From Trichoplax sp. H2 (Eukaryota): 64,000 nucleotides of DNA. Of the stretch, positions 18,024-59,735 are shown piece by piece. The stretch spans positions 558,001 through 622,000 of the forward strand of contig NOWV01000010.1 of NCBI GenBank assembly GCA_003344405.1. The letters run 5' to 3'. How positions within the stretch are numbered: position 1 is the first letter of the stretch; each line of letters starts with the position of its first letter. Position numbers and translations under genes: made by a program. A model generated the notes under the pieces. The model searched no databases, had not been told where the DNA came from, and was given only the letters and a program-made list of their open reading frames with translations.

Positions 18024-20285
18024 AGTACAGTGTTGAGATCCTGTACTGTACGCTGTACACTACTGTACGTTTGATACAGTAGTACAGAGTTGTACAGGAG
18101 TGTACAACTCTGCCGTTATACTGTACAGTATGAAAAAAGGAACCAAGGTCCTCTAGTACTGTATACCGTAGCTATCTCATCGATGTTGAGTAACTTTGCA
18201 GAACTTAGCGTACAATATACTGTAATGGTAGAACTTCCATTTGAGTCAAAAAATAGGTAGAGAATACTAGGAACAGTATCAAATTTAGTCTGCCGTTCGA
18301 TTGCACCCTAATAAGTAATTAGAGCTCAATCAACTTCATTTCCCCCCAAATTGACGTTGTTTCCTTTTATACAGAACCAAACCTTCGACAGGTGTAACTA
18401 CAGCACAGTACTGTAAGCAGGGACCGTATGGTACTGTGGTCAAAAGCGGGAGATGGTCGAATAGACGGTCAGCGTGTTTGTGTGACTGTGGGATTACCAC
18501 TCTCCCCGCCGCAGTGCAGTACAATACAATGTACGGTGGCTCACAAGGGTCAGCGCAATACAGTACAGTACGTCGTCAGAACTGCTGATACTGTACTAGT
18601 ACTGTACAGTTCTGTACAGTACTGTACATGCAGCATTGCAGCAAATGACTGTAACAACAGTGTACAGTACTGTACAGTACAGTACAGTACAGTACAGAGA
18701 AATGCGGAAAATTTTAAATACTGTACAGTAGTACAGTATATAGTACTGTAGGTAAGAGTAACATGGCTCACTAATGTGATACTGTACAGTGTACAGTAGG
18801 TTTCACAGACTGACAACAGCATTAATTATGCCGCCCGTGCCCACGACAACTGTTGACTATTCCCGCAACACTAAGTGCACCATGCCGTCCGTCATGCGTC
18901 TTTTCTCCAAAGTTTTCTCTTTGGAAAGGGAAAAATTTTGAAAGTGCTGTACAGTACTGTACTGTACGTGCTCACTGCTCTCAGTCGTCACTCAGTACAA
19001 TGGACTGTAGCAAGAAGAAGACCTATGCTAATCACTCTTGGACGGACAGACATCTCCGGCCTTATCTCTTCCAAATATTGTGTTAAACACTTCGTTATGA
19101 CACTACTTTAGTATGCAGATGGTCGATTTTGAATTGACTAATTTTTCTAATGAAGTAATATTACGCTCAATCTTATCATCTGTTCCCAAGTTTCACTTAG
19201 AGACAGTGATATCAGATCGTCGATGTTATTACAATTAGTACCGGTGATTTAGAAATCAGACGCCGAAGATTCATACCACTGTACAGAACTTTCTACTTAC
19301 TGTACAGTACAGTCCAGTACAGTATTTCTAGTACAGTTACTGTCCACCCCGTAGGGATTGCAATCTGTCCAAATTTGTTCAGCTGGCGACAATGGGCGCA
19401 ACGTCATCACTGTTGGTGTCTAAGTGTTACAAAGTTAACTTTTATCTGTGAAAAGTTTTTCAAGAGCAAAGTCTGCTGTTCTATACTGTACGTAACTCTC
19501 CGTACAGACAGTAGCGTCGCTTTGGCTAAATCAACGAGTACTAGAAGAAGACCAGACGAAAGCCTCCTTTCTCATTCTAATTATTAATTAATGAATGCAT
19601 TATACGGTTCGCCATCATGGATGGACTCTACGCGTCCTCACAGACTGCTGACGTCACATACTGTAGATATGGACCGTAACTGTCCAGTACAGTACAGTAC
19701 CAGTACACCACTACCAGCGTGTACAGTACGGTACAATGCACTATGATTCGACAGTACTGTACTGTACTGTACTACTGTATACTCAGTGGACTGCTCTGCT
19801 GGTAAAGCTGTGGTAGGCGAAGTCATTGCCGTAGTGAAGAATACTGTTTAAAGCATAGTAGGAACTTGATACAAAGTCGTCTTGATCATCAGGCGTCAAT
19901 GAAAAATATCAAGCCATTAATTAGTGCGCATAAATTGCATAATACAGTACACCGTCCAGTACAGTACCAGTACACCACTACCAGCGTGTACAGTGTACTG
20001 TATTGTACACTGTAGAGCACGGTACAATGTACTGTGGTTCGACAGTACTGTACTGTAGTGTACTATACTCAGTGGACTGCTCTGCTGGTAAAGCTGTGGT
20101 AGGCGAAGTCATTGCCGTAGTGAAGCTGAGAACACTGTTTAAAGCATAGTAGGAACTTGATACAAAGTCGTCTTAATCATCAGGCGTCGATGAAAAATAT
20201 CAAGCCATTAATTAGTGCACATAATACACCGTACCGTACAGTACAGTATGACGTTAGCGGGTACAACGTGCCACATTGTACAGTC
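18024..20285. repeat. Discontinuous TACAG/CTGTA (ACAGT) microsatellite island between divergent SLC35D and RER1
   Basis: Dense blocks near 18024-18175, 18550-18800, 18945-19000, 19275-19345, 19680-20060 and 20225-20285, in both orientations with TACTGTACAGTA palindromic junctions. Confidence 0.9.
19682..20224. repeat. ~270-bp tandem duplication, two copies
   Basis: 19682-19933 versus 19954-20224. Shared TACTCAGTGGACTGCTCTGCTGGTAAAGCTGTGGTAGGCGAAGTCATTGCCGTAGTGAAG and AAAGCATAGTAGGAACTTGATACAAAGTCGTCTT. Confidence 0.92.
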
Positions 20286-20340
20286 AAGATTTACTCATTG
20301 AAGAAGAACCCAACGAGAAGGGGCTACCAAGGGCTACTAG
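20281..20340 (+). other. Probable non-coding first exon (5' UTR) of RER1
   Basis: Begins where the TACAG island ends and ends at a strong donor CTAG|GTAAGC (20341). RER1 has an acceptor TTCTTTAG| at 24271, 17 nt before its ATG, so an upstream exon is needed. The pairing is inferred and the start is approximate. Confidence 0.5.
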
Positions 20341-23300
20341 GTAAGCGTATTTAGATAGAATAACTCCATTTTCGCTTGTTTTATCGTTAGTTTATTATCA
20401 GAAACAATCTTTTGATATCGCCATTACCATCATCTAATCTGGAGAGTATGATAGCTGCAAATGATCGTACTTGTATTCGATATTCATCAAAATACTTGAC
20501 TGTGCGAGCATAACATGTTGGTTATGAATTGATTGCCGACGAGGAGTAGCGATAGAATTACATCTGTTGCCTTCTTATTTGACCGTCGGTCATGATAATG
20601 CCAAATAGAATATCCACACACTAAGTGTTTTATTTGTACCTATCAGTAACAAAAGATTTCCGATGGATTGAAATAACAGGCTCCTCTATGAAGATTAGGG
20701 CAAAAAACTGCCTTTTAAATTAGCTCACCAATGCTAGTGATACTACAGTATTCGCCAATTACAGTATAAAGCGATGTTGATTACTGACCAACATCGACGA
20801 ATGCCACCATCAACGTTATTAAGGTATTGATTTAAAGTACGGTAATAGGATAATTATCAACAACAATTCACTCATAAGTTAGCCAGTAATATAACCCTGA
20901 TGATGATGAATTGTGTATACGCCATTAACTGTTGAATGCAGGGTAAATTGATTATTACTTGACGGTAAATAAGATGCGTTGAAAAAGATTACATGACTGT
21001 GAACTCGAGCTACCTTGCAATATACCAATCCAAGTATTGTATTACCGATATGGGCAAACTTGGCACTAAGATTGTCTTGACTACAGGATCAAAATCTGCT
21101 TTAGAAACCAGTTGTTATCATGTTGGGCATAGAAACTAGAGTCGCAGATGACATTCTCTGAATACGTACGTCATCAGAGTTCATAGGGCTTAAATTCATC
21201 AATTACCATTATCAATTCATAATGATAAGACACTCGGCATGAAACTATATATTGAGATCCTGTAGTGCAATATAAATGATAGACTGTACTGGACTTTCAT
21301 TCGTAGCTAACTAGCTTATAGAACTATTTCTACTAGTGTACAGTAGTATAGTGCAGCATGTCATAGTAAGATACGTATAACGATGTACCGTAAAAAGGAC
21401 TCGAACTTTTCCGATGATGATGACAAATTTCCATCAATGACTTGTTAACTCATTCCTTCAAATGATCTATAGTACATACAGGTATGCATGTATGTATATC
21501 TAAAAAGATACGTTAACATCTAAAAAGATCGAATGGTAGATACTCTACCTTTCGGCCTACGTCGACAGTACTACTACGTTTAGCAAGAAGGCTTTGATTA
21601 CACCGCTACCTGCTGCTAATAAATTTGCTCTTACGCGTATACAACTATTTTCAGTACATTGATAGATTATTAACAGGAGGAAGCCTTTTGTCCATGTGTA
21701 GTTCAGATCGATGATAGATAGACTCTGTTGATTCACGATAATATTGCCCTTAGTAGTGAATTCTGAAGATACAGCTATAATACCCGAAGCTATACAACGC
21801 TCACAATATTGCCAGATACAGTATGTTTACGCTTATACAAAATATGTATTATAAGAAATGCTTTCATCCAAGTCATTGAAGTAACCTTCATCACAACCAG
21901 AAAATATGTCAAGTGATTCGTACACGTATGTACACAACAGAAAAATAATTGTCTTGAATGTACTGTACTTATGTCCACGGATAAGTTTAGAGTTCTTTGC
22001 TATATTTCTACAATACTAGACAATATTCGAAAACAAGATTCATACATTCTAGTATAATCACGCTTGTATTTGACCCATCTACAGTACTGTTAATCGGAAA
22101 CAAATTTTAATCTTCACAATCGTCGATTCAATTCAACATTGAAATGAGTTTTGTAACAGTGTACGCGTGTATACGATAATGGTTGATGCATACAAGCATA
22201 CAATTACTTGTGATCAGAATCAAGGCTTAACAATTTGCGAGACTTGCTACAACATTTGGATAGTAATAGCATTGTTCTATTCATCTCATCATCGTAGGAT
22301 CTTTCATTTCTAGTCTAAGAATAAGTTATGCAGCCTTTCAATTATAAGTTGATAAATACAGGAATAATTATCATAAACGTAAATGCAACCTTCAGTTGTA
22401 ATTACCGCAAATGTCTCAACAAGTATACGCGTACTCTGAACTACACCAACTTGTATAATGAAACAAATACTGTACAGTCATTTACAAATTAGATAGCATG
22501 CAATAGAACGCTTTAAATATTCCACCGTTTCTGTTAATGTATTAAATTTATATATTATGTAAAGATGGTTACTACTGCATTTTGAAGATGATTCGGTCGG
22601 TAGTCGTTTGCGTTGAACGTTAGTGACTACATTTTAATAATGTATGCTGTATAGGTTACATGAATATACGGACGGGTATGCTACTATTTGCATCTAGGTC
22701 GTTTAATTACTACCAATGTATGCTGAGTCAATCCGTGAGACTTGCTTTTTTATATACAAATAATATAATCCATAGACTTCTAAATTACGCAATCAAATAC
22801 AAAGCATAGAATTGACGGACTCGAATGACCTAAATTCGATATTATGGATCTTCATATTTAGGGATTTCTTGTTCATGCTATCAAAAGTAGTCAATAGTCT
22901 TTTTTTTCCCCCTTAACTTAGTAATTAAACGTTATCTATGATTCATATCACTTTGAAGTTAGAACGTTGAAGATTTGATGTAAAATATGATAGCTTCATT
23001 GTATTCAAATTCCTACATCAATATTACGAGTCGAAACCGCCCTTTCCTCCAATAATGTAGAATATACTTCCATTTTATTGTCATAATTGTGTTCTACTCC
23101 TGACTAAAATTTAGAGATCAGTGCTAGGTCGTATGAGACATACGCATACATATATCATACACTTCCTTGATGCGTACGTTCACATATTTTTACAATCAAT
23201 CACCGTCATCTCAATGTAGTAATTTCCTACGGCCTGGATGGGGACCAGTATTTTATTTATATGTGAGAATTCACTGACTGCAAGCTTCAGATATGTAGTC

Positions 23301-23674
23301 TATTTAGTCTTTTTGTACTCGTATGCTACTGATAACGTACACTGTTTTACACTAGTCACAAGATGAATTCTAAATTAACTACGTACAACTATTCGTTCTA
23401 CATCGTATTAATTAATATCCGTTACTGAATATGTGTCTGAGCGAAACAATGGAGCTATTTCGTTTCACTATCGTTGAAATCCTAGCTTTTCATACTATTG
23501 CGTAATGTTAAATATCCGAGTTACATTGTCGGTCATGCTAAGACTGGATATGGACAAAAGAAAACTGATTATTTATTACCCATAAGATTAACGGAATTAA
23601 CATTTTATTTACCAAAAATCAATTCAATCATAAATTGATACTCTGATTCCGTCAATGTATGAATTTTTTCAAAA

Positions 23675-23896
23675 TCTACATTTGTAAAACCTCCAAACTA
23701 GATAATATATCATTTCATTTTCAAAAATTATAATAGCAGATTTCGAAATGTAGATGATAATGCATAGCATATATTACCGACAATACGGATGTTCTACATC
23801 TATAAAAATCTCCCAAACTAGACAATATACCCATTCGTTTTACAAATTGTAAAAGCGAATGCAAAATTTAGAAAATAACACTATAATGTTACTGAC
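23675..23896. repeat. Diverged ~120-bp tandem duplication
   Basis: TCTACAT...CCAAACTAGAYAATATA occurs twice, ~120 bp apart. Confidence 0.65.
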
Positions 23897-24288
23897 CACG
23901 CGAACATTAATGTCATTTCGAAATGGGTTTGTTGTATACTGACGATCGAATTAAACTTTTCTTGCTTAACTTAGGTAACCAGATTTATTGGTCTATAAGG
24001 AATGTATTTTTACTACGCTGAATAGCAAAGATAAAACAGAATCTGCTTGTAAATTTCCGATAAACTTTGAGCCTAATCGAGTAAGGATTGCCTTTTGGAT
24101 AAATTTTTACTTCTCTAATTTTATATAGCTACTAGTATTTTATAATTACAATTACACACGAGAGTTTTTTAGTGAACTATTACAGGATATCACTAGATTA
24201 AAATTGTAATCGGTGCTCTAAGTTCTAAATTGCTCTTTAACTTAAACTGTAGCATCGTTATCGTTCTTTAGGTAAATAAATTATCAAA

Positions 24289-25481
24289 ATGTCTTCAAAT
24301 GGTGATGAATTGGGAAGACCTTCTCCTTCCGTTATATCGCGTTTATCCACTAGCATATCACTTGTACGATCAACGTAGCTTAACTTTATTACTATCAACC
24401 TTTATATTTGTTTAGTTATTAATTTATTGTCCATTAAATATTAAAAGTATTATCAGAACTTTCTCGATCGTGCCACCCCGTATGTTATTGCTAGATGGAT
24501 TTCGACAATGGTATTATCAATTATCTATGGTCTAAGGATATATATAATCCAGGTATTATTGGATTAAAATCTTAGTTAAAGCTAGACTACAGGTTTCTTC
24601 ATACACTTGCTATACTATATATTTCTCTTTCTTGCCAAATTTTCGTTGTAAAGATAATGATTTTGTACTTATGGTAAAGGTATTTAGCAAGAAAATTCAT
24701 ATTATCAACTTCATTTTTTATGCCAAAAATTTAGGGATTCTACATAGTAACTTATGCTCTCGCCATCTTTTTATTGAACCAATTTATTGGTTTCCTAACT
24801 CCCCAAATGGATCCTGCAATGTCTATGGAAGAAGGTTTGAATAAAACTTTTCCTTAGATAATCAACTAATATGTCTACTACACGATTGCAATTTGATCAC
24901 ATCACTTTACGTAAAAAGACGAATTTTGATAACATGATTGACTATTACGAATAGAGGAAGATGGACCGACGTTACCTACCAGAAGAGATGAAGAATTCAA
25001 GCCGTTTATGAGAAGGCTCCCTGAATTTAAGTTTTGGTAATTAAATATTAGTCAATATGCAATTATATTGTCCTGGAAATATCTTTATCATGCAATAATC
25101 AAATTATTCGGCGCTTTCTGAAGCTTATTTTTAAAATTTTTATAGGACTTCTACTACTCGAGCTATTATAATTGCAACTTTCTGCACTTTCTTCCAAGTA
25201 TTTGATGTACCAGTATTTTGGCCAATATTGGTAATTTATTTTTTCTTATTGTTTTTCATGACAATGCGAAGACAAATCGAGGTTTGTACCATTTTACGCA
25301 AAGTGTGGTATAGTAGTAGTCTACATAGGACAACGGATGCATTTCTATTTATTAAATAACTAATGTAGAAATCTTACTTGTCCAATTGTAGCATATGATT
25401 AGGTACAGATATTTGCCATTTTCTCATGGAAAGAAAAAATATAAAGGGAAGGAAGATAGTGGAAAAGTTGTGGTATCTTAG
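24289..25481 (+). CDS. RER1: RER1, Golgi-to-ER retrieval receptor, 6 coding exons
   Basis: Exons 24289-24363, 24448-24552, 24735-24834, 24955-25036, 25146-25281, 25392-25481. Peptides [92 protein letters not shown]. Confidence 0.96.
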
Positions 25482-27834
25482 TATCATTGATTTGTAGCTG
25501 ATTACTAATATAAATTAAGTAATAAATTGTAACATCAATGAGTTCAGTTAGTCCCATTTTTAAAATATTAAAAACTCAACTGATAATAATAATTGCTGAA
25601 ATACTGCATCTAATAGCTGTTACTGAAATCGGTTAAGAGAATTTTATTGAATTTCTCGGTATTGGTACATCGGTATGAATCAGAAAATTTTTTGTCTTTA
25701 TATTATACTAATTATTGTTAGATAGCAATGCTTCGAAATCTTCGTAATATTGAGGTAGAGATATGCCGGTATGGATAATGATAATTTACAGTATTGTTCT
25801 CGGTCTACTCTTCTGTACAAATTGTTCGTGATTCACGTTATTTTAAATAAAGCCTTTCAGACTAATCAATCTTGAAGAAAGCTTAATATGGTTCATCCTG
25901 AATGCTGTTATTTTTTGTTCACATTCTTTGTAACTAGTGCAACTTTAATTTTTTTGTGCTCCATTTGTTCTATTCAAGTATTAATTCATATTGAGTAGTT
26001 GCTGGAAAGTTTGACATTTCGTACAGTATATCTGTTATGAACCAATTACTGTAAGCTAGTATCATCGCATGATGGATTATAGCCAATCCACGACGAAAGT
26101 ATGCTTGCTACAAGCTACAATGCAACCAACTGAATAGTGTATACTCGTATATATGTATATGTAGAGTGAATATGTATAAAATACGAATATGTAATGTACT
26201 ATTACTAGATATCATATTTTCATCTATAGAAATTAATAACCATACCAATCATATGACTATTGGCGACTGTGATAGGCATTTAATGCACATCCGTTACCAA
26301 TTAAAAATACGATTCGAAAGTATTACTAGATACCTAAAACTCGTTCTTGTCAATCGAAAAATCGTTGTGATTTAGCATAGTAGAATTATGTACAGTAGAA
26401 TAGTGAACACCCATTAATGAATAATATATTAATTAGTTTTTAAATTTGGTCTTTCAAGGAGAGGGAGTGTGCCACAACGTCAGTGTAGAGTGTACGAGTA
26501 CACACCTTAGGGTATTCACTTAAAGCGTTAAACTGTAAATGCTTTTGTGTCATCACAATCAAGATTGAATTCCAACAGATGCATTTAATGATGAAATAAC
26601 TATCTTGACAGTGATAATAACTTATTCTTGATGGATGATTCATTGATGGCTAAAGCATGACTAAAGTAGTAATTACGCTATTAACGTTTACTAGTTCGAC
26701 TGATGGATAAACAGAAGGCTAAAAATAGTTATGATAGGTAAGAGGACTCAAAATTGTTCACGCTACTTGTAGAAGGTGGCTACATTATAAGGTACAGATC
26801 GTCGAAATAAAATTGACTTTATTTTTTGAAGAAAAATATCTATCTTTCCCCGAGAATCGAGTCATGTTATGAGTCAAATGACGATATCCGTAACCTTAAC
26901 GGATAATAAATTAGGTTAGACTTTCAGTTTGGCTACGAGCTAATAGTTTAATCAATAGCGTACTGCTATCATAATGAGAAGTGTTGATACCAAGTGACTA
27001 TGAAAGAGCTATTTTATTGAATTACGAGATATATGAGTATATATTCTTATCAATTTATCCGATTACTATTGCTGTTAAGCATACAGTAATAATGCTAGAC
27101 TAACAATTGAATCCTGCTGGAGGTCCGGTCCAGGTCTAACTGATATACGTTCTGTACGAACTCGTACTGTATGCGTAAAATGAACTGTCATCTACTATGC
27201 ACGCATACTATCGTCTCCAGAGATTGACAGATTCTACACAGCTGTTACAGTTTCAGACTTTGAGTGAATTGTTGCTTTATATTCATTTATTGATATTACT
27301 GGGGCAAATTACTATTACGTAACAAGTCTTTTCTTCCAACTTGAAAGATCTTTTTATGAGCAGCTACAATACAGTATATGGCAGTGAGGAAGTCCGTAAC
27401 TCGCTCGTGATGCAGGAGGAAATTTATTTTACTGGAGCAAGTTAACATACTGTACGTGAGAATCTCTTCTTTTTTAAGCATAGCCGCAAAAAAGTATCGA
27501 AATTACATCAAAATAAGAACCATAATAGCAAAATCTGTATCGCATTTAGGGTTTCTCCATGACTAGCCATATTTACGTTCTAAAGCCCAATTTTGAGACA
27601 GACAGACAGACAAAGCAAGAAAAAAACCGACCCAAACTTGTTATACTTCCTCGGGCGGGTGGACCTTCATCGCCAAATGAGGCTTCTCAATGTCGAAAAA
27701 TGACTACTTAGTAAAGGGATCTTCCGTGTCTGTTTTTCTATATCGGTGGTACTAATTGAAATAACATTATAAAACTAAATTAAGCCATCCGATCAAGCGA
27801 GAGCCAGTATTGCTGACTGTTTTATTTATTTGTT

Positions 27835-37350: not shown

Positions 37351-37411
37351 TTTGAACAGGCTTTGGAAAGTTGGCCACAAATGAGATCAAGGCTCAAATC
37401 TCACCCGCCGC

Positions 37412-38410: not shown

Positions 38411-41075
<2,665 letters not shown>

Positions 41076-48556: not shown

Positions 48557-50953
48557 CTTGAAAGTAGAACTTTTTATTGTCTGGTTGGAGAATCTTTGCT
48601 GTGTAATGCAAAAAAATGAATAATAACTTTTACTATGCGTATATAGAACTCCCTAAATTACAGATCTTTTACCATTCAAATATTGAAGGTAATAAAAGCA
48701 GTATTAAGGAAAAATTTCCTTATTCCATTCAATTCTATTTGTGCAGGAAATATTTAATACTAATTTATAGCATGAGGACATTGTAAGTGACTATCATCAT
48801 TGCAATGGATCGAAGTAAATTGATGCGATGATAGTAATTTGTAAACTGTATTTTTCAAAATCAGTAAAGTGTGCTCTAGAGAAAATTGGCTATACCAGTA
48901 AATTGGATCACGCATCAAAGCTATAAAAGAAATTGTTACACTTCAATAAAAATTTTCATTTCTGCTTCAGTATTTCCTATCGAAGTATAACGGCATCGCG
49001 GAAACTGTCGTCTTGATTTATCTTAATCTATCTACTCCACACCGTGTGAACTAGGGTACAGTACATTAATCAACGAGAAAATGATTAAGGGGATAATTAT
49101 AGCAAACATGAAAATAAGATTTATTATACATTCTGACTTACGATAATTAAAAATCTTCTTCTAGATGTTCAACAACAATTCTCCAGGATAGATATAACTT
49201 CAAAATCGATTAATACCGTATTGCAGAAAGTGATATTTGATACGGGTAGTTATTGTAATCATCGATAGTAATACTTATTAACGGTCACTAATCGACCGTG
49301 CTATTACAAATGGAAAAGTAAGCTAACAACATCATCAACAAGACTGGATGATTTCCAAAAAAGAAAGTCGTTTATAGGATGGAAATAACGGTCTATAAAC
49401 AATGCGTTAAAGAACAGGTGTATTGTCTAGACTGATTACACTACTGTTGCTTTCTACCCGTTACGCAGTAATTTCTTTCTTTTATGATATCAATGGAAAA
49501 TAAAAGCGAAGAATAAGTCTATGACAACGTCAGCAAAAAGCTTTATAGAAGCAGTTGAGTATTGACTAAATCTCTAGATTTCCTATTCATGGTTCTATAG
49601 AGAGAGAGAGCATAGAAGACTACTTGAACAAGGGCCAATTCACTTGGAGTTGTATGTGTGTTTACGTTAGACTTTGATATCTATTAGTTTGTAGAGAAGC
49701 AACCAAGTAACGCATTCCAATAACTATATTAAATATCAAAAAATGATCTAATTTTTGAATCGATCAGCATGAAAATAACTCTGTTGTTAGTTTAGCTACA
49801 TGTATCAATATATTATTTTCCTCATACTCTCCATATCTCTCTTCTCAAGGATAGTCCTTCAGTTAAAGTAGTCAACTTAGCTTTTGTATGTTCGTTCCCT
49901 AAAATGATGATTTAATGTATAGCCAGACTGAAATTGTAAGCATGTAAGTAGCTAGTAAACACGCATATCATTGGTACGCGAGGACATTGAACTCAAGAGC
50001 ACTAGCTGCGCTTATAATCACGATATTCCGATATTCAGTTGATCTCTTTCCTATGATTCTGGATGCTGACCTAGCGTCATCTCAAAATTTTACAAACTGC
50101 CGTTTAGTCTGGCATCAGGCCATTTGCTGGTAAACCAATCTACTAGGTATCAAGTATTCCTTACTCAAATTTGAGCAGTAAAACAATATTACGTGTACAA
50201 GTAGGCTAAAACTTATAATATTATATCGATAGTTGAGCTTTCAGATCATCAGAAGTCACGAATATCCAGAGATTTTAAGCATTTCTCGTTGACCAACGGC
50301 TAAACAATAACATGAGAAACTTTGCTAACTGTAAGCATTTTCAAATTACAAATTGTCATTATAGCATTTTGTGATGTACAGTATTTGTATACATCATTTT
50401 AATTTCAGTTATATCAGGGAGAAATTATATCTGGATCTATCTGGAAATAATCATAATAAATCTAGTACCAGTAAGTCTATATATAGCAAGAAAAATGTTT
50501 GAACAATAACTCCATTATACACGCTCGTATAGTACTGTATGAATATTGTAATCGACAACGGCATCTGTATTCTACCTATTCTCGCATGCTATGATATCGG
50601 TTCGTTTTGAAATATTGTGTCACACATTGACTTGTAATGATTTCCTGTCTGTTGAAAGTAGTTTACTGTGCTGTATTTATAGCCCTACTACATTAAGAAG
50701 AATTCATTCATAATTATAATAATTAATAATCATCATCCTATCTATCTTTTAAAATAGCGAGTGTTGATACTATGGATCGTACTAAAATACAGTACAGGAC
50801 TGCTTGTCGCGGTCCGTAAATTACGAGACTAGACAAGCAAAATACAATTATACGTATTGTAGTGTACAGTAATAGTTCGGTCGGCGAAGGGTAGGACGTT
50901 TTAGCTAGTAATCATAATAATAGCTAGCTATAGCTACTACTCACAGAATTTTA

Positions 50954-51368
50954 TTGTAGTATATAGTATGTAGATCGTTATTGCGAATGTATCCATTTTG
51001 CTGTATCCATTAGCACTAAAACGCTATCCTGTACAGTATTACTGTTGTAGTATATAGTATGTAAATCGTTATGGCGAAGGTATCCATTTTACTGTATCCA
51101 TTAGCACTAAAACGCTATCCTGTACAATAGTATGGTGAATCATATTACTCGTGAATTGTACACTATGGCATAAGAAAACATGCAACTAAAAAGTACGTCA
51201 TAATTGTCAATATCATGGACTACTAGAAGGAGACCTTCCAGTAGTCCATGGTAAATCATATTACTCGTGAATTGTACACTATGGTATAAGAAAACAAGCA
51301 ACTAAAAGTACGTCATAATTGTCAATATCATGAAGTAGAAGGAGACCTTCCAGTAGTCCATGGTAAAT
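50954..51368. repeat. Two adjacent tandem duplications (period 91 bp and ~116 bp)
   Basis: 50954-51035 versus 51045-51126, then 51132-51247 versus 51248-51368. Confidence 0.9.
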
Positions 51369-51419
51369 AGCCGCAAGAAATGGCAATAAAGAAAATCCTC
51401 TACCAGTGTCTTCCACACA

Positions 51420-52360
51420 GCACAGTACTGTACATACTGTACTGTACACTGTACATACAGCACAGTACAGTACAGTACTGTACACTGTACTGTACTGTAC
51501 TGTACAGTATTTCAACTTAGCTCGGGGTACAGTACAAGTACCGTAGGATATTTCTGGAAGTTCATAGTGCAGTACTGTACTGTACTGTACAGTACTGCAC
51601 TGTATGGTTTCGTGGACGTGATAATGTTGCATAACTCCATCACAAATAAAGGAAAGATTGATTTTACTGGAATCGGACAGTGATCGGACAGATTCAATCC
51701 AATCGGACAGTCTACCGTATGGTTTCGATTGACGTGATAATACAGTACTGTATGGCGTCAACTTGTGCAGCTTTTGTTTGTACTGTACACTGTAAATTAC
51801 AGTACAATGTACAGTACTATATGTACAGTACTGTACGTACGTACAGTACACTGATCAGAATGTGACGTACAGTACTGTACTGTACAGTATCACACAGTCT
51901 ACCGTATGGTTTCGATTGACGTGATAATATGGCATCAACTTGTGCAGCTTTTGTTTTGTTTCCACCACAGTACTATACACTGTGTCCACAGTACAATGTA
52001 TAGTGGAATATGTACTGTACGCTGATCAGAGTGACGGATGGGCGGATAGTCTATCGTATGGTTTCGATTGACGTGATAATACAGTATGGCATCAACTTGT
52101 GCAGTAATGTGCAGCTTTTGTTTATACACTGTAAATTACAGTACAATATACAGTACTTTATGTACTGTACACTGGTCAGAATGTGACGTACAGTATTACA
52201 CAGTCTACCGTATGGTTTCGATTGACGTGATAATATGGCATCAACTTAGACCTGGCATCAACTTGTGCAGCTTTTGTTTCCATTACAGTACTGTACCGTA
52301 CAGTGTACAGTACTGTGCTGTACAGTGTACAGTACAGTGTTGTACAGTGTACTGTCACTG
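51420..52360. repeat. TACAG/CTGTA array with an embedded higher-order repeat, between divergent Kv2 and CABLES
   Basis: Pentamer runs separate four copies of AGTCTAYCGTATGGTTTCGATTGACGTGATAATA...TGGCRTCAACTT at about 51709, 51896, 52048 and 52202. Confidence 0.92.
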
Positions 52361-53602
52361 TGGTCGAAGTCTGAGAAATCTGGTGATGAGACACTGACGT
52401 TATCCTCCAGTCCAAAATAATTATTTATTCCCTAGCTGCAAATCCCAAAGCCATCAACTGATCAACTCGTTCAAAGTTATTATTTCAGTCATTCAACATT
52501 ACATCAGCGAGAGCGAACAAGTTTGGAACAATACTTTGGTCGAAATAACGCTATCCATGATAAGACTGCGTCGTCGTATGTTGCCTTATTACAGTGGTGT
52601 AATAATTCATTAATGACAGCAATCATTGAGACGAGAGTTCAGAGCAAAATCAACAGAGGGAAAAATAGGTTACAATTTTACAGCTAATATTGCCCAATTT
52701 TACATTAAACGAAGAAATCAATTGGCAAGCATTCATTTCTATCTTGGTCAATACTTTATACTTGGTATTGAGTAGTTGGACGACAACTTTTTCTTGTATT
52801 TCACAGTCAGAAAAAAGATAACATGATACCAATGATATCAACATTGAAATCCTATCGTATTGTAATTACCTGCCACTATTCGATAGGCAGCATTTTCATC
52901 CATTAATTAATACCATAAAGCGGTCATTTGCTCTTTAATTTCCCAACATTTTTCTTGTGTTAATCATCGTTCTTTACCTGAAAAAAAGATCGACATTTCA
53001 TCTTGGTTCGATTGCAACATTGTTATTGTGCTCACGGTACGAAGTGACGCTGGATCTTATTCAGTAGTCCAATATTATCGTTCAACTACTGATTCGATTT
53101 ATAATCACTCGTTAACCTATCAGCATTGAATTGAATCTATCTTGCAAATCATTTGCACTAACGCAGTCAAATATGCACTTGATCTAATCGGCTATTGCGA
53201 TTCTATTGAACTCAATTCTATATGAAAATGCAGTGATACAATCAAAATTGATGCCTTTCAACTCAGTTGTGTAGTTCAGAAGAAAAAGTAACGTTAACCA
53301 TTCATACTCGTATTCGTACCAGTGAAACAAATTGCACTCTTCCAATTCATCTTTCTTAATTAATCTTGTCCAGCGCATTTTATTTCCACTTTTGCTGCTG
53401 TTAACTGCCATAAATACTAATACTTATTATTTTTCTCAAAGCTTTACCCTTTACTTAAGCAAAACTATCAGAAAACCATTCATTGGCAAATAGCATACTA
53501 CGGTATTGCAATTAACTCGATCTAACCATATTTACAAGCATTGCTGTAAAGGCGAAGCCAACCTACTTTCCGTACCGATAGCTCAGCATTCAACACACTA
53601 TC

Positions 53603-55758
53603 ATGACATCAAGACATCAAGCTGCACTTTCTTTCTTGCACAATATCTCACTGGATGGCACTCGTAATGAATTTGATACACCAATCGTCGATGATGATGA
53701 TAACCAAAACGATCAAGATAATTCTTATGTTGACTCTGTTCAACCGAGTCACGAACTAACTACCAAGATTGAGCAAGTTAATCAACAATCAGACGAAAGA
53801 CAGATAAAACAGACCATGGATCAGAGTAAATTAAAGGACAAGCATCAATTGCGCCTAAGTTATCTAAACCCTATCGCTCTAAGCACTACAAAATGCCTAC
53901 CGTATGCTGTATTCTCTGTCATTCCATATTCTAAAGATAATGCATTGTACGCTATTTCTCATACTCTATTTTTTAGATATCAAAATGTTTGTCTTACACA
54001 CTATAGACTATCTCAATATACTCGTATAGTAGAGGTTATACTGTGCTAAAATGATAGGATGAATGAGTCACTTTGAGTAGCAAATAAATTCCCTTTAAAA
54101 TGAATCCTTTTTAATCAATTTAACAACATCGTCTTTCGGTATTGTGTTTTCGTCAATAGATTAGATACTTCTATAATCAGACATCGACAATCGATTACTA
54201 TGAGACGTTCCTTATCTGATGTTACTCAAAATCTAATTGAACGACCGGTAAGATTTGCATTGGTCATGTCTTTATACTGTGGACTTTGCTAATTTTTGAA
54301 CTACTGTATAAAACGTTCTATAAACTTGTTGAATAATTCTTAACTTGAGCTAAAGTTACCCCTTACTCACAATTAGATTACATGTATTCCATCTAATATT
54401 CTTACATAAACGCAAGAAATATGCACAATATAAACTGGATTTACTGTACATATCTTGACTTCTACAGGCAATTTCGTACAGGCTACTACTTACGCCAAAG
54501 GGTAAACAGCAAACATTTAAATCGTTAGAACTCAATTTATCAGCACGATTTAGTAAGTACTACTTCTTGATCTCATTATCCACATTTTTTAAAGCTATTG
54601 TTAATGCTAATGTAATTAAATCTAACGGTAGTATGAAAACAAATACGGAATGCCGATGTTTATATGTAGTTATTGCAGTAAACCTATATGGTACATGGTA
54701 ATGCTAAACAATTTCTATTAATTATAATATAATCAATTAAAACAGGTAATCAATGGTTTCAAGAAGTGCTGGAAGATTCTAACGGCAACATTCATTATCA
54801 TCCAAATCTTCTTGATGATCCAGAGCTTCGTACCGGAAAGCACAGAGTGACATTGCGATTACCATCTATGATGGTTAGTATATCAACGAAATATTACAAC
54901 CATTATGCACCAGTAATTATTAGTTGTTACCTTAACCATGCAAGATTTGACTATTTGTAAACTATTTTAAATATTAGTTATTAGGTCAAGGTAGTTTTAT
55001 TATTAATTAATAATAATTGAAGTAAATTGCAGTATCTTGACTTATATAACTTTTCTGTACGATGCCTTAACGAGACTTTATTACTATTTCCTTTATGGGT
55101 ACGACAGTTTTCTGTCTTAGAATATTCTAAAGCTTCCGATATCAAAAAAGATCTCAATGAACGATTCAAGGGAAGATTTCCTACTATAGATCTGACTTTA
55201 AGTAAATTGCGTAGTTTAAAAAGAGAGCTATATCATATTGCGGTGGATTTATGTTCATTAGAAGCAATCACTGTGGCATACGCTTACGTTTATTTTGAAA
55301 AACTAATATTGAAGGTGCGTATACCACTTATGAACGTTATATTATATTTGGTAAGTCTTATTCCATCTTCAACACTTTATTTCTTCAAGTACTTGTTAAT
55401 ATAATGAGATATAAAGTTAAAGAGGTATTTATAATATTATTTCTTAAATCGTTTTACACCTCTGCATTATTAATTATATGTAATTATTATTCTGTCAACT
55501 GTGTAGGGAAAAATTAACAAACCCAACAGAAAGTTAATTTCTGGTGCAACGTTATTACTAGCTATTAAAATGACAGCCGACATTAAGCAAACGGAGTTAA
55601 CAGAAGTTATTGATCAATTACAAGATAGCTTACGAATTAATCGTAAAGATTTAATTGTGTATGAATTTGATTGTTTAGTAGCTTTGGAATTTTCTTTGGC
55701 AGTCCCTCAATCTATCATTGCAGTACATTACCAGCGAATAATACATGAAAATTCATAG
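53603..55758 (+). CDS. CABLES: CDK5 and ABL1 enzyme substrate (CABLES) homolog with C-terminal cyclin-like box, 6 coding exons
   Basis: Exons 53603-53946, 54160-54247, 54468-54552, 54746-54873, 55108-55314, 55507-55758. AALSFLHNISLDG, PYAVFSVIPY, YHPNLLDDPELRTGKHR, LTLSKLRSLKREL, AYVYFEKLILKGKINKPNRKL, EFDCLVALEFSL. Confidence 0.94.
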
Positions 55759-57370
55759 CGTCATGTTTTCAGTCCTAGACAGTAAAAGTATTTGATATTA
55801 TCTATGAACACCAGTTTATAACGTACTGGAGTTTGATACTAATTGTATAGTTAACTCTCTATCGTAAAACGATCCAATGTAAATTACTGAAATATAAAAA
55901 TTATAAAACGATTTTATATAAAAGTATTATTGGTAATTAACCAGCCAATCGTACATTTTGATAGTTAATTATCAGCATCATCTTCGATTTTTTTCTACCA
56001 AATGTTTAATCAATAATAATTTCTTGTGAAGAACATTTCATTGCTAATAAACTTACACTGTGATGAGATTTCATTTTTACTTTCATATGAAATGAGAAAG
56101 CTATGATACTGTAGTCTTCTCATATAATAGACTACTGTAACTGAATGAGGTAAAATTAACTTTTGTCTGTTACAGTATAGATTTTCGCATTTTCGTAAAG
56201 GAATACTCTAGAATGAAAATGTATGTGTAGGATAATCAAAAAGGAAAATAAATGTAAACTACTAGCTACTACAATACTTTAATACCTACTGCATATACAT
56301 GTAGATTTTCTAATTGAAATTGTACATATCCTATATCTTACGCATCTAAACTACACAACGATCATCTTGCAAGGCGGCAATCTACAAATCAATACTTAGC
56401 TTCGGATTAAAGCTTGCTCTAATCATCGGGCAGTTTTAATATTAAAATCATACTCCGCTGTAATGGTAATATATGAGGTTTATAATAGATTCAAGAGTTC
56501 CTCCTTTACTTATATGTCTAATACTACGGTTAGGATTCCGCCACAAATCCCAGGTTGGCTACAAATAATGTTTATCAGTTTGAGGACTAATTTTGATCAG
56601 AATAATTTAATAATACTGCAGTTGCTAAGATCCAACTGATATTCTTTAAACAACATACGTTAATCTGCTTTCAACTTATAATCTAACATGAATCTTTACT
56701 AAATATTTACAATATTCAAGCAAGTTACAAATCCAATCGGACGGCATCATTATCACACAATTTATTATTTTATTAATAAAGTCATCAATAATTAAAATTT
56801 TCTACTAATAAGTTATTTACTGTTAATTCGAACCGTTAATACTTGGCATTATAGCTAACACTAAACACCGCTTTGGTACTTTTGCATGATAGTTCTGGAA
56901 TGATTAATGATTCTAATAATAGAAAATAGTCATATTAAACGAGCAGCTTTATACATCTGATTAAATAATTGTAGTATAACCAGTGATATCATTTACAGTT
57001 TTTAACAAGCAAGATTACGTAGATAACACAGTAACTATCTTATGTTGGTTGGGTTTAGAATGGTTTTTCATAAGTAGACTGTTACTTCAACTTGATTATA
57101 CATCTCGTAAAGCATTTTTAATAGGCACGTAACTGATAAAATAAGACTGTAATCCTTAATGACATATCTGAGAGGAAATAGACTCTACTTAGCACATACA
57201 GTACAGTAGAATAAGTATAGCACTAATTTAGTTTATACAGAAACTAGAGATCAAGTTTATTGGTAACTTTAATTTATTTGAAGAAATAAAGCTCGTTTAA
57301 TTGATTACCGGTACGCCTTGAGGGTATACGCGTCTATTTACAGTATATGGAATCAACTCAATCGTTCAAG

Positions 57371-58633
57371 CTATTGCACAGTTATTTCGAGTAATTTACC
57401 GTTTTCCGAACAATTATTATTAGTTTTACTAGCTACATCATGATTACAATTAATAGTTGAGTTCTGACTGCAACTGAGGTCACGATCATTCAATAGTGAA
57501 CTCTCGCTAAATGTATTGGAATCATCATCAAGATTGCCTACCACATCGAGATGATCATTTTCGAATAGAAAAACACCGGATCGTTTGGTGCCAAATTTCT
57601 TTCTAGCTTTCTGCCAGATATACCTACCCAAGATAACCGTATAATGCAAAAATGCACTTAAAAAACCATGCAGAAATACCCATAAACCACCGACGTAAGC
57701 AAAAACTGTAATAAAAGTTAATATACCAATGTTATAGTTAAATGTGCAGAATGCGCTCTTGTCGGCAATATCGGCTGATATTGGATGATAGCAGTGTAGC
57801 GCTATATTGGATGCATTATCAGCGCATCGTTTCAATTCTGCATCAACACATTGATCACATAAGTAGCATTGAACAGATGGAGTTACTTGGCATAAGAGTG
57901 AAATTTTCCACAAAGATTCAACGCATACCCAGGAAATATATAACCGACTAGTCCAAAAGATAAGACAAGTTGATGTAACCACAAATAATGCTACTAAATT
58001 CCAGATAACATGAGCATTGCTATAGGTATACAGGGGAAAATGTGCTTTAAATTTAAAAGGTAATCGTCGCCTTTTAGTGAGGAATGTTGTTAAAACTAGG
58101 GCCATAGTAAAAGAAATGGAATAGATTTGTACAAAAATACCATTGAAACGAGTTTTAAAATATTTCCAGTCGAAATCGTGCTGATTCCATAAATTAATAT
58201 ATAGATAGATGAGAGTAGTAAAAATTAATGAAATTGTCATTAACCAACTTGATCGACCAGTAAAGCGATTCCAAGAGCACACACCAAAGTAGAAGAAGAA
58301 AAAGAGCAATATTGGAGCGTCAGTAAATCGTCTAAATGTGTTGTCTGATTGTAGAAATTCTCGAACAAATATTCGCTCAGGTAATTCATGATTGGCTAAG
58401 GCATCAAAAAGTGGTCGGCGACGTATAAATTCAATCATACCAACAACAACAAAAGTAAGGGCTATGGATGCATGAAGGCATTGCGAAATAAATCGAATAC
58501 TTCTACAGTCCCGTAAAGATCGGACAGGATAACAGCAACCAAGTTGAGACCATAGGCTCGGACGATGTTGTTGATTTCGATCATCATTGATTGAATTGAT
58601 GCAGTCGGAGTCTGTGGTTAGCGTAACGGACAT
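57371..58633 (-). CDS. Intronless 420-aa multipass membrane protein of unknown family
   Basis: A 1263-nt ORF in AT-rich DNA. About six hydrophobic segments, an 8-Cys loop containing an NAS sequon before the last helix, then a basic stop-transfer (QKARKK) and an acidic tail. Confidence 0.85.
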   Translation of the reverse strand: MSVTLTTDSDCINSINDDRNQQHRPSLWSQLGCCYPVRSLRDCRSIRFISQCLHASIALTFVVVGMIEFIRRRPLFDALANHELPERIFVREFLQSDNTFRRFTDAPILLFFFFYFGVCSWNRFTGRSSWLMTISLIFTTLIYLYINLWNQHDFDWKYFKTRFNGIFVQIYSISFTMALVLTTFLTKRRRLPFKFKAHFPLYTYSNAHVIWNLVALFVVTSTCLIFWTSRLYISWVCVESLWKISLLCQVTPSVQCYLCDQCVDAELKRCADNASNIALHCYHPISADIADKSAFCTFNYNIGILTFITVFAYVGGLWVFLHGFLSAFLHYTVILGRYIWQKARKKFGTKRSGVFLFENDHLDVVGNLDDDSNTFSESSLLNDRDLSCSQNSTINCNHDVASKTNNNCSENGKLLEITVQ

Positions 58634-59364
58634 GATGAATGACTAACTACTAACAATGACGAAGCGTTAATCTTAATATAACAAGTACTACATATATTCC
58701 ATTCATTCATCGATGTCTACAAATAAGTTATGATTTTCAATGGAAAGCGCCATATCAGTCTCTCCAAGACGATGGTATGATTAGCAATGGTCAAAGCGAT
58801 TTTGGACTTGGAAAATTGTTCTAAATTGCGTAGATATCCTTAGCAAATCCACGATACGACAGTGTTGGATCGGTGTATCGTAGAATATACTTTTTCCTCG
58901 TTTAAACTCGCTTCAATTCTCAACAGCGAAGACTATCCTTGATTAAATCTGCCATCAAAATTTGATATCACTCAATCAGGCTCAATTATTCGGATCTTGG
59001 TTGAAGATGGGAAGCGATGAATGACATCATTCAGTAATTAAGTAATAAATAAACAAACAACTGGCTCCGGAAGAACAACAAGTTACCAATGCCATTCGTC
59101 GGTGGCATTCCGTCGTCGTTCTCATTAATCCGATAATTCCTCTATTAATCTACATTTATTAAACCCAAATAGAGGGTCTCTAAGTAACGGTATTCAGTAG
59201 AAGTTATTGCGTAATACACGACGCCGCAGCGCGGTACAGTACCGGTTCCCAATGTTTGTTACGTAAGCCAGAGGGGCGGACGGACGACCAGTGGCCATTG
59301 AGTGTAAATTAATGAGCAGGCTTACCATTTTCTGGTCATTCCACTATACGCTACCACTGAAACC

Positions 59365-59735
59365 ATACTGTATACCACACTGTACAAAACCAACTCAGCC
59401 GCTATACTGTACTGTGTACAGCATTTGGATGAAAATCGTGGACAGAATGTGGACAGTACAGTATACTGTACTGCACACTGTAATTAGGAGTACTGTACAC
59501 TTTGTCACGGACCACTGGAAGGAAATACTTGCAGCATGTAGTGTACACTGTACTGTACAGTACTGTACTGTACAGTGTACAGTACACTGTACTGTAACAG
59601 CTGAGCACCTTTGGGATCATACTGTACCGTACAGTACAGTACAGCACAGTAGAACTCTGTGCACTTTGTCACGGACCACTGGAAGGAAATACTCACAGCA
59701 GGTACAGCTGAGCACCTTTGGGATCATACTGTAGA
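59365..59735. repeat. TACAG/CTGTA array between the divergent orphan membrane gene and DDX31
   Basis: Pentamer runs plus duplicated CACTTTGTCACGGACCACTGGAAGGAAATACT (~59498, ~59662) and ACAGCTGAGCACCTTTGGGATCATACTGTA (~59597, ~59704). Ends ~70 bp before the inferred DDX31 ATG. Confidence 0.9.

Follow-up and report, generated by a model that had tools for sequence, protein, structure and literature searches.

One question raised by this locus is why clusters of a single pentanucleotide repeat should stand beside gene starts, and what, if anything, they do there. The window, meaning the whole stretch of 64,000 nucleotides analysed from Trichoplax sp. H2 (contig NOWV01000010.1), contains five large clusters, which the original prediction read as TACAG/CTGTA arrays acting as bidirectional promoter platforms. 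The gene-associated Trichoplax microsatellite that it mentioned has been traced to (ACAGT)n of Wang et al. 2010 (Biol Direct 5:18, PMC2871265). In the available passages of that paper (ACAGT)n is the dominant simple repeat of T. adhaerens and lies mostly upstream of genes, with 54% of the motifs at most 1 kb and 85% at most 5 kb upstream of a gene. ACAGT there accounts for 78% of pentanucleotide repeats and heads the pentanucleotide motifs of ESTs, and Wang et al. suggested that it is a site for transcription factors. The arrays of the window are clusters of this microsatellite, which they match in unit, in gene-upstream position and in the proposed transcription-factor role. The core finding is already in print and a mechanism is not. 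New here are (i) the reading of the unit as (GTACW)n, (ii) the excess of orientation flips, (iii) the contrast between classes of intergenic interval, and (iv) the patchwork architecture with its hairpin potential; the same passages of Wang et al. contain no A/T spacer mixing, GTAC-palindrome reading, head-to-head versus tail-to-tail contrast, GC-word patchwork or hairpins.

Anatomy of the arrays

Both TRF and 7-mer counts establish that the five predicted period-5 arrays are real. TRF reports period-5 arrays with the units TACAG, GTACA and CTGTA in all five regions, together with derived periods of 7, 10 and 12, and the 7-mers of (TACAG)n/(CTGTA)n number 736 in the window (410 + 326) against 54.2 +/- 10.9 expected from 20 order-1 Markov shuffles. 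These 7-mers are concentrated at 18.0-20.5, 27.5-28.0, 37.0-38.5, 51.0-52.5 and 59.0-60.0 kb, and the arrays themselves are as follows.

18024-20283, unstranded: array 1, 2.3 kb of short (GTACW)n runs in patchwork, flanked by the SLC35D-like gene (-) and RER1 (+)
27843-28010, unstranded: array 2, a small one, with the RER1 3' end on one side and FKBP on the other
37413-38072, unstranded: array 3, between the CZIB-like ATG at 37350 (-) and the UBE2W ATG at 38412 (+)
51417-52370, unstranded: array 4, inside the 5.0-kb Kv (-) / CABLES-like (+) head-to-head interval
59235-59733, unstranded: array 5, between the orphan gene TRIADDRAFT_57894 (-) and the DEAD-box gene (+)

The arrays are built of short runs (2-7 units) interspersed with GC-richer unique spacers, which carry GC-box-, ACGG- and CRE-like words, and of local duplications. 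Higher-order tandem duplications are present in four of the five: a 286-291-bp duplication at 19.7-20.2 kb in array 1, one of 112 bp (37802-37967) in array 3, a 152-187-bp composite unit repeated four times in array 4, with TGACGTGA in each copy, and one of 164 bp (59493-59704) in array 5. Among the words of the spacers and flanks, array 1 has two GC-box-like sequences (18505 and 18831), one ACGG-type word (18886) and the CRE TGACGTCA (19649); array 2 has a GC-box-like word on its upstream side (27653) and, on its downstream side, TATAAAAG (28166-28173) and then the FKBP ATG (28261); array 3 has the word CACCCGC three times (37402, 37791 and 37898); array 4 has a combined GC-box/ACGG-type word at 52034-52045; and array 5 has GGGGCGGACGGACG at 59274-59287. 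GC-box-like words are found at all five places where they had been predicted (18831, 27653, 37404, 52040 and 59274), and the expectation that a few occur elsewhere also holds, with seven of the ten distinct GC-box core sites of the window in or beside arrays and three away from them (13751, 23037 and 40887). ACGGAYG-type words occur at nine places, four in arrays (18886, 37459, 52034 and 59280) and five outside.

The (GTACW)n unit and strand mixing

The repeat is better written (GTACW)n, a 4-bp palindrome GTAC recurring at 5-bp intervals, the spacer base being A or T. GTAC occurs 493 times in the window against 195 expected, 104 of the 492 gaps between successive GTACs are of exactly 5 bp, and the spacer base at these in-phase gaps is A in 53, T in 43, C in 5 and G in 3. 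On the opposite strand ACAGT reads ACTGT, a change of the middle base alone, so that the orientation flips that had been predicted amount to in-register changes of the spacer, each of which creates a perfect palindrome of 10-12 bp. The flips are indeed frequent, TACTGTACAGTA occurring 14 times and TACAGTACTGTA 12 times in the window.

How unusual is this mixing for the repeat? A W-degenerate pattern retrieved 110 metagenome contigs that bear it, in which it forms both long and fragmentary arrays in other organisms. Flip decamers account for 38 of the 80 adjacent-unit decamers in the window (47.5%, near-random), in keeping with the strand symmetry that had been claimed, and for 90 of 2325 (3.9%) in the metagenome contigs, a difference of about ten times. 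Measured as switches against same-type steps, the ratio is 12/22 over all in-phase chains of the window and 24/531 over the chains of 3-5 GTACs in the metagenome contigs (Fisher p = 8.8e-8), and the minority orientation falls below 5% in 87 of the 110 contigs. Strand mixing of the kind seen here is therefore unusual for this repeat. Among the 20 longest blastn matches between the window and the 110 contigs there were only repeat-to-repeat alignments, at 66-69% identity, and no orthologous locus, and the ORFs flanking a fragmentary array in one of the contigs (L073) gave no gene context.

The mixing might be selected for. On this account (GTACW)n would be a placozoan-specific element of tandem GTAC-centred palindromes, suited to a dimeric factor or to initiation on two strands, that nucleates open, insulating, bidirectional promoters; we consider it unlikely. 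Somewhat better placed, if still doubtful, is an explanation that needs no function, in which a hairpin-prone microsatellite arises, grows, duplicates and rearranges preferentially where promoter DNA is open and divergently transcribed, and is lost from transcribed stretches by purging, the strands becoming mixed through lineage-specific mutation, such as A.A/T.T mismatch correction in GTAC hairpins, or through template switching. Several features of the arrays fit such a by-product. The hairpin potential is strong, with single-strand DNA folding giving -35.7 kcal/mol (z = -7.0) for 18589-18697 and -31.2 (z = -4.0) for 59537-59651 against -5.5 and -3.9 for two control stretches, and both the tandem duplications, present in every array but array 2, and the long and fragmentary arrays of other organisms are as it would have them. 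The runs are also short and degenerate, 42 of the 65 in-phase chains in the window having only two GTACs and the longest having seven. Periodicity fades within 2-3 units of any anchor, which counts against a promoter platform. Position-specific constraint beside the anchors does not discriminate (spacer A or T in 80-86 of 96, consensus at the other positions in 45-73 of 96). Against a mere by-product stands the flip frequency itself, at 47.5% here and 3.9% for the same repeat elsewhere.

Arrays, gene starts and RNA contigs

The relationship between the arrays and transcription depends upon where the flanking genes begin. The starts used here, together with one interval that serves as a counter-example, are given below.

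6394-14000, unstranded: counter-example interval, 5' of TRIADDRAFT_57886 (-, ATG 6393), with no array and a repeat coverage of 0.38%
17656-17772, minus: SLC35D-like first coding exon, read by eye, ATG 17772, name unconfirmed
20290-20337, plus: RER1 non-coding exon 1, its 3' portion, matched by a loose RNA-contig end spliced to 23972, with gtaag next and the start approximate
28166-28303, plus: FKBP first coding exon with ATG 28261, preceded by a TATA-like box at 28166-28173
37345-37350, minus: candidate CZIB-like start, an unconfirmed reading by eye in which gtaagt comes after ATGGTG
38412-38521, plus: UBE2W first coding exon (Pfam)
47690-48556, minus: Kv channel first coding exon, with the BTB_2/T1 domain
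53603-53947, plus: CABLES-like gene TRIADDRAFT_57893, the first coding exon in its annotation
57389-58633, minus: main exon of the orphan TRIADDRAFT_57894, placozoan-restricted
59804-59908, plus: DEAD-box (DDX31-like) gene, putative first coding exon, with its ATG at 59804 read by eye

Of the gene names that had been proposed, Pfam upholds RER1 (+), FKBP (+), UBE2W (+) and Kv (-), whereas "SLC35D" and "CZIB" found no confirming match. One SLC35D-like exon gave only sub-threshold matches to UAA/CRT-like transporters, and the DEAD-box gene (+) gave three weak, collinear DEAD matches. Pfam returned no match for the CZIB-like, CABLES-like, orphan or TRIADDRAFT_57886 exons or for the putative DDX first exon, a PDB sequence search with four ORFs returned none, and the ESM Atlas had no usable match for the CZIB-like exon. 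Proteins of the window are 93-100% identical to the T. adhaerens models TRIADDRAFT_57886, 57893 and 57894. RNA contigs carry GT..AG introns in RER1 and FKBP and CT..AC introns in the CZIB-like gene, which places the latter on the minus strand. RER1, FKBP, UBE2W and the DEAD-box helicase are genes of a housekeeping kind.

The arrays lie in 5' intergenic DNA. All five are in intergenic intervals that contain a gene 5' end, as had been predicted, and the six intervals of this type hold 1203 of the 1475 repeat-covered bp (82%). Repeat coverage is 6.09% in 5' intergenic DNA, 0.70% in gene bodies and 0.37% in 3'-3' intervals, an excess of 9-16 times. The claim that tail-to-tail intervals lack large arrays likewise holds for all three of them, the repeat covering 18 of their 4901 bp, and the short intronic patches that had been mentioned are present at 29135-29160, 39069-39084, 46144-46175, 57197-57209, 16795 and 17098. 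An interval-level test within this window, with all five arrays inside six of nine intervals, gives a weak p = 0.048. The explanation of the arrays as by-products would account for the coverage excess only on the further premise that the repeat has a biased origin or is purged, but it accommodates the small intronic patches, and also the one promoter without an array, that of TRIADDRAFT_57886, which is the exception among ten gene 5' ends (7.6 kb upstream examined).

Distances from array edge to ATG agree with those first estimated, at 63 bp for the CZIB-like gene, 71 for DDX, 252 for the SLC35D-like gene, 251 for FKBP and 340 for UBE2W, and seven gene starts in all (six ATGs and RER1 exon 1) are within about 350 bp of an array edge. 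Further off are the orphan TRIADDRAFT_57894, whose ATG (58633) is ~600 bp from array 5, and the genes beside array 4, for which the nearest ATGs are those of Kv (~48556) at 2.8 kb and of the annotated CABLES-like gene (53603) at 1.2 kb. From ATG to ATG the head-to-head pairs are separated by 1062 bp (CZIB-like/UBE2W), 1171 bp (orphan/DDX) and 5047 bp (Kv/CABLES-like), with ~2.5 kb between the SLC35D-like ATG and RER1 exon 1; array 3 takes up 660 of the 1061 bp that separate its two ATGs. Since a bidirectional promoter is defined by divergent TSSs separated by less than ~1 kb, the arrays between head-to-head genes are candidates for one.

Could the repeat itself be where transcription starts? 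If each unit offered a CA(+1)GT, the arrays would be dispersed core promoters on two strands, partly transcribed into 5' UTRs. The arthropod initiator TCAGT resembles this sequence, though its consensus is that of arthropods and may not be placozoan. The short distances of the CZIB-like and DDX ATGs (63 and 71 bp) are consistent with such initiation, as is RER1, whose exon 1 match at 20290-20337 adjoins array 1 and would put the transcription start at or within ~100 bp of the last repeat patch (20236-20283). A weak hint comes from an RNA contig of run X17 in which 38051, inside the array, is linked to 38202, on the 5' side of the UBE2W ATG; the UBE2W 5' UTR would then start within the array. 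The rank of ACAGT among EST motifs, in the available passages of Wang et al. (PMC2871265), points the same way. The sense strand of the flanking genes favours ACAGT by 82 to 57, but this polarity is not significant (pooled Mann-Whitney p = 0.07), with six of nine gene sides as expected. FKBP argues otherwise, since its TATAAAAG at 28166 is ~155 bp downstream of the array, which makes that array a sequence upstream of the core promoter rather than the core promoter itself. We regard initiation within the units as quite improbable.

The RNA evidence comes from four runs, all as Logan contigs, from which transcript starts and expression rank are not readable, and this too weighs against the case for initiation in the repeat. 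Of the placed contig sequence, 79% (X9) and 75% (X10) runs on into unlike sequence, and the contigs over the arrays are repeat-collapsed chimeras whose joints link different arrays (18798 to 37628; 37743 to 19754), so that contig depth over the arrays is uninformative. Between runs there are 5-bp indels at 36847 and 38051 and a 4-bp indel at 21520, a further point in favour of the arrays as by-products. With their 5-bp indels, local duplications and small intronic patches the arrays behave like ordinary unstable repeats.

A possible role in promoter chromatin

Overall the reading of the arrays as promoter platforms is partly supported. In the form proposed here they would be orientation-independent, promoter-proximal elements that open 5' DNA and act as a chromatin boundary, a proposal for which belief and doubt are about evenly balanced and in which protein binding, open chromatin and an effect on transcription are all inferred. 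A putative factor would recognise the numerous palindromic sites with a GTAC core, extrusion of hairpins or cruciforms possibly helping it to bind, and the occupied clusters would hold the intergenic DNA at gene 5' ends open and serve as a chromatin boundary. With core promoters at or just outside the array edges, one array could then serve the genes on both sides. In favour of this proposal are the 5-bp register of GTAC, the strand mixing, the position in 5' intergenic DNA and the hairpin potential; against it stand the array-free 5' end of TRIADDRAFT_57886, the distance of array 4 from its nearest ATGs, the weak interval-level test, the lack of significant polarity and the resemblance of the arrays to ordinary unstable repeats. 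The literature searched names no factor that binds this repeat, and we know of no animal factor with GTAC-repeat specificity. The literature matches listed for the decamers, 30 of 165, were only primers and unrelated papers; ACAGT appears in Eitel et al. 2018 only within a primer, and neither microsatellites nor tandem repeats come up in Najle et al. 2023.

A link to chromatin structure comes from Chimaera, a deep-learning approach for which, in the passages available, repeating ACAGT and ACGG motifs are important for predicting T. adhaerens Micro-C maps (NAR 2026, PMC12817080). According to these passages in-silico mutagenesis confirmed the effect of the motifs on the predictions, and the model shows insulation at gene starts. 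The motif is that of the arrays and is tied to features of the 3D map, which opposes the explanation of the arrays as by-products; what is reported is a model-derived importance score rather than a locus-level description. That the model was trained on correlations counts against the promoter-platform reading.

Might the arrays be derived from a transposon? They would then be foldback or Mutator-type remnants, with a preference for insertion in promoters and inverted ends built of the pentamer. Such a preference has a precedent in the available parts of Kim et al. 2025 (Nature, PMC12221973), where Mutator insertions are described in housekeeping "GP1" promoters with the loop-anchor motif in the TIR. 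The arrays here share with that motif the setting of housekeeping promoters, and ACGG-type words accompany four of the five. Pairs of T-type and A-type patches also fold back, for example 18599-18628 with 18661-18690 (93% complementary). The GP1 motif nevertheless appears to be a different sequence, repeating ACGG according to the Chimaera text. Among the inverted-repeat pairs inspected in the arrays (the five longest per region, of 13-67, and all four in the fifth region) all arms are pentamer-derived, with no TIR of unique sequence and no Mutator TIR structure. Five ACGG-type words lie outside the arrays and the available Chimaera text ties ACGG only, not ACAGT, to a transposable element (PMC12817080). 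A transposon origin is very improbable.

Returning to the arrays as promoter-proximal elements, the available parts of Kim et al. 2025 (PMC12221973) also report some promoter-enhancer contacts, place about one third of placozoan genes in promoter hubs and leave the architectural protein unknown. If the arrays are functional, a (GTACW)n probe would be a handle for finding that protein, and should the genome's commonest simple repeat have a part in promoters or boundaries, constitutive opening and insulation would here be lineage-specific and fast-evolving. If they are by-products only, they would still help to locate promoter DNA and illustrate how open chromatin shapes the evolution of a repeat.

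Two known systems invite comparison. The (GA)n promoters and boundaries of Drosophila, served by GAGA factor, also use a short tandem promoter-proximal motif, viewed as a protein-bound platform that opens chromatin. The likeness would be functional only. The (GTACW)n arrays differ in having a palindrome-based, strand-mixed unit and no known binding protein. Nucleosome depletion was also suggested originally; an intrinsic exclusion of nucleosomes gains nothing from the sequence, the longest A or T run per array being 4-6 bp and the composition (~42% GC) giving no pointer.

The bidirectional promoters of vertebrate CpG islands are likewise broad, strand-symmetric blocks between divergent housekeeping genes. 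The arrays differ from them in being repeats rather than a compositional domain, and the CpG-island likeness at first proposed fails on CpG itself, for which observed/expected falls from 0.97 outside the arrays to 0.69 within them. Were the mixing of strands indeed selected, the job of a CpG island would be done in a compact genome without CpG depletion, by a microsatellite that slippage can resize. The GC content of the arrays is ~0.42, compared to 0.32 in the rest of the window.

The arrays and the genes around them

The five predicted clusters of the pentamer TACAG/CTGTA, equivalent to (ACAGT)n or (GTACW)n, are indeed tandem arrays, in which Tandem Repeats Finder detects a period of 5 together with derived periods of 7, 10 and 12 and the units TACAG, GTACA and CTGTA. 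The 7-mers of (TACAG)n or (CTGTA)n number 736 in the window as against 54 ± 11 in order-1 Markov shuffles, and are concentrated at 18.0-20.5, 27.5-28.0, 37.0-38.5, 51.0-52.5 and 59.0-60.0 kb. The array limits were set by base-by-base reading.

Pentamer arrays, with flanking genes (strand) and locally duplicated units
18024-20283: array 1, between SLC35D-like (-) and RER1 (+); unit of 286-291 bp, 2 copies
27843-28010: array 2, between RER1 (+) and FKBP (+)
37413-38072: array 3, between CZIB-like (-) and UBE2W (+); unit of 112 bp, 2 copies
51417-52370: array 4, between Kv (-) and CABLES-like (+); unit of 152-187 bp, 4 copies
59235-59733: array 5, between an orphan (-) and a DEAD-box, DDX31-like gene (+); unit of 164 bp, 2 copies

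Three ORF queries match the Trichoplax adhaerens models TRIADDRAFT_57894 (the orphan), TRIADDRAFT_57886 (a gene without an array) and TRIADDRAFT_57893 (CABLES-like) at 93-100% identity, and these models were placed back on the window with tblastn. Pfam supports RER1 (+), FKBP (+), the UBC enzyme (+) and the Kv channel (-), introns in RNA-derived contigs read GT..AG for RER1 and FKBP and CT..AC for the CZIB-like gene, and three weak collinear DEAD matches indicate the DEAD-box gene on the plus strand from 59.8 kb. The names SLC35D and CZIB, taken from the original prediction, were confirmed by no search, and for these two genes the strands and starts alone enter the position analysis.

Gene features of the minus strand
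43622-44698, minus: Kv pore exon (Pfam)
44021-44134, minus: Rfam K_chan_RES (potassium-channel RNA editing signal, RF00485), inside the pore-domain exon
47690-48652, minus: Kv T1 domain exon (Pfam)
56839-58633, minus: orphan TRIADDRAFT_57894

The K_chan_RES match scores 56 bits against a gathering score of 51 (E = 1.5e-08), and conserved coding sequence may be its sole cause. The orphan has two other homologues only in a search of 5.8 billion proteins, at 69-70% identity, no match in Pfam or PDB, and is apparently confined to placozoans.

Repeat unit and strand mixing

Fundamental to the anatomy of the arrays is that only the middle base distinguishes ACAGT from its reverse complement ACTGT, such that an array consists of GTAC palindromes at 5-bp steps with one W base between them. 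This tetramer is found 493 times against 195 expected, with an exact 5-bp gap in 104 of 492 successive pairs, and the spacer of these in-phase copies is A in 53, T in 43, C in 5 and G in 3. The frequent flips of orientation that had been predicted are present, but since A and T spacers are mixed in register they represent spacer changes and not inversions. Every flip creates a perfect palindrome of 10-12 bp, with TACTGTACAGTA present 14 times and TACAGTACTGTA 12 times. The in-phase chains are short, with two GTACs in 42 of the 65 and seven in the longest, and the 5-bp periodicity is lost within two or three units from any anchor; between the repeat runs lie unique GC-richer spacers and the local higher-order duplications. 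Just to the left of array 4, at 50954-51307, there are two more tandem duplications, one of 91 bp (1.9 copies) and one of 116 bp (2 copies), that are not pentamer-based. Whole-unit differences between RNA runs, as assembled contigs, and the window fall in pentamer patches, where run X17 has an additional TACAG at 36847 and lacks 5 bp at 38051 and run X10 has an additional ACAG at 21520, consistent with slippage polymorphism between strains.

The same repeat was compared in at least 110 metagenome contigs matching a W-degenerate six-unit pattern, which were chosen for at least one long run. Flip decamers represent 38 of the 80 adjacent-unit decamers of the window (47.5%) as against 90 of 2325 (3.9%) in the 110 contigs listed, among which the per-contig flip fraction has a median of 0 and reaches 30% in 5, and the minority orientation stays below 5% in 87. 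Counted as switches versus same-type steps, the values are 12 and 22 for all in-phase chains of the window and 24 and 531 for chains of 3-5 GTACs in the contigs listed (Fisher p = 8.8e-8). Several metagenome contigs contain many short fragmentary runs, as the window does, yet keep a single orientation, and near-random strand mixing thus belongs to the Trichoplax arrays rather than to the repeat itself. As a consequence of this mixing the arrays are strongly self-complementary: in single-strand DNA folding, stretches of the arrays reach -26 to -36 kcal/mol, with z between -2.3 and -7.0 in four mixed ones, against -4 to -5.5 kcal/mol for two control stretches folded in the same way. Six of the contigs (L044, L047, L062, L073, L006 and L023) carry long fragmentary pentamer clusters with 20-35 in-phase chains each, in one orientation. 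Among the matches listed, metagenome clusters align with array 3 at 66-69% identity over ~500-700 bp, purely via the repeat.

Position relative to gene starts

The arrays had been placed at gene 5' ends, and all five do lie in intervals that hold one, with the predicted edge-to-ATG distances borne out (63, 71, 252, 251 and 340 bp). For array 4 the starts on either side are farther off, with the annotated CABLES-like ATG at 1.2 kb and the Kv ATG at 2.8 kb. TRIADDRAFT_57886, whose ATG is at 6393 on the minus strand, lacks an array across 7.6 kb upstream. Array 5 is about 600 bp from the orphan ATG. A 27-bp x 3 tandem repeat (6719-6800) lies ~330-400 bp upstream of the TRIADDRAFT_57886 ATG, and another repeat, of 68 bp x 2, occupies 1496-1633.

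Repeat coverage by DNA class (bases within (GTACW)n matches 9 bp or longer; window total 1475 bp; several gene 3' limits are approximate)
Six intergenic intervals with a gene 5' end: 1203 bp of 19.8 kb, 6.09%
Gene bodies (introns mostly): 254 bp of 36.5 kb, 0.70%
Three tail-to-tail intervals: 18 bp of 4.9 kb, 0.37%

The predicted lack of arrays in the three tail-to-tail intervals is therefore upheld. Taken singly, five of the six 5'-holding intervals have 3.7-25% coverage and one has 0.38%. The chance of all five arrays falling in six of nine intervals is p = 0.048, such that within this window alone the density contrast is clear and the interval test weak. Could the arrays be a neutral by-product of repeat instability within open promoter DNA? 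The 5-bp indel differences between runs, the duplications, the intronic pentamer patches and the one promoter without an array would all fit, but this explanation is opposed by the strand mixing and by a positional contrast of 9-16-fold, and we consider it somewhat unlikely. A 20-N gap (32769-32788) within the tail-to-tail interval of FKBP and the CZIB-like gene has direct repeats of 97-99% identity on either side (32369-32514 paired with 32789-32934, 32598-32768 paired with 32924-33094), and this region, 32369-33094, looks like an assembly duplication.

With RER1, a non-coding first exon adjoins array 1, where the end of a contig that splices to 23972 aligns at about 20307-20337, followed by gtaag. 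With FKBP, the TATA-like box TATAAAAG lies at 28166, ~155 bp downstream of array 2, which places this array upstream of the core promoter rather than as the core promoter itself. The FKBP box also opposes the idea of tandem initiator-like units, as does an ACAGT polarity that is not significant; the very short edge-to-ATG distances and one contig linking array 3 with the UBE2W leader speak for such units, which nonetheless appear improbable. Between array 2 and the FKBP box is a 20-nt inverted repeat (28024-28109, 85% complementary, 46-nt loop). Directly upstream of array 2, an X17 contig (depth 22) spans 27012-27596 of the RER1/FKBP intergenic DNA. It may represent an unannotated transcript or an extended 3' UTR of RER1, and were it transcribed from the minus strand, array 2 too would be head-to-head.

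Proposed role and the published record

The reading we favour, of the arrays as an orientation-independent promoter-proximal platform, is in our estimation evenly poised between right and wrong. In such a platform a putative factor would bind the clustered GTAC-core palindromes, perhaps with hairpin extrusion at the palindromes, and the arrays would keep the intergenic DNA at gene 5' ends open and form a boundary, with core promoters placed at array edges. What is shown is what the arrays are, how they are built, where they lie and how unusually their strands are mixed, while factor binding, open chromatin and an influence on transcription are inferred. The analogies to CpG islands and GAGA tracts in the original prediction could be functional at most, because CpG o/e is 0.69 inside the arrays, below the 0.97 outside them, and the five arrays contain no poly(dA:dT).

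The core of the array finding is already in print. The text of Wang et al. 2010 (PMC2871265) gives ACAGT as 78% of Trichoplax pentanucleotide repeats, with motifs upstream of genes (54% within 1 kb, 85% within 5 kb), an enrichment of translation and kinase genes and a suggested transcription-factor site. The text of Kim et al. 2025 (PMC12221973) describes promoter hubs of housekeeping genes with an associated motif within Mutator TIRs, and in the portion found mentions neither ACAGT nor microsatellites. This Mutator account, together with foldback patches, would favour transposon remnants as the origin of the arrays, but there is no unique-sequence TIR among the inverted-repeat pairs listed (the five longest per region, and all four in the fifth), and we regard such an origin as very improbable. 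A literature search of main texts found nothing further on a mechanism or binding factor. The in-register reading, the strand mixing relative to the same repeat elsewhere and the contrast between interval classes appear to be new details, which sharpen a hypothesis open to testing with public data.

The text of the Chimaera study (NAR 2026, PMC12817080, and preprint) reports repeating ACGG and ACAGT motifs from T. adhaerens Micro-C, attributing ACGG to a transposable element, and its model predicts insulation at gene starts. Here, ACGG-type words turn up in four of the arrays as well as at five positions outside them. GC-box-core words occur at all five predicted positions, with 7 of the 10 distinct sites of the window in or beside arrays, a CRE (TGACGTCA) is present at 19649, and TGACGTGA is found four times in the array-4 units.
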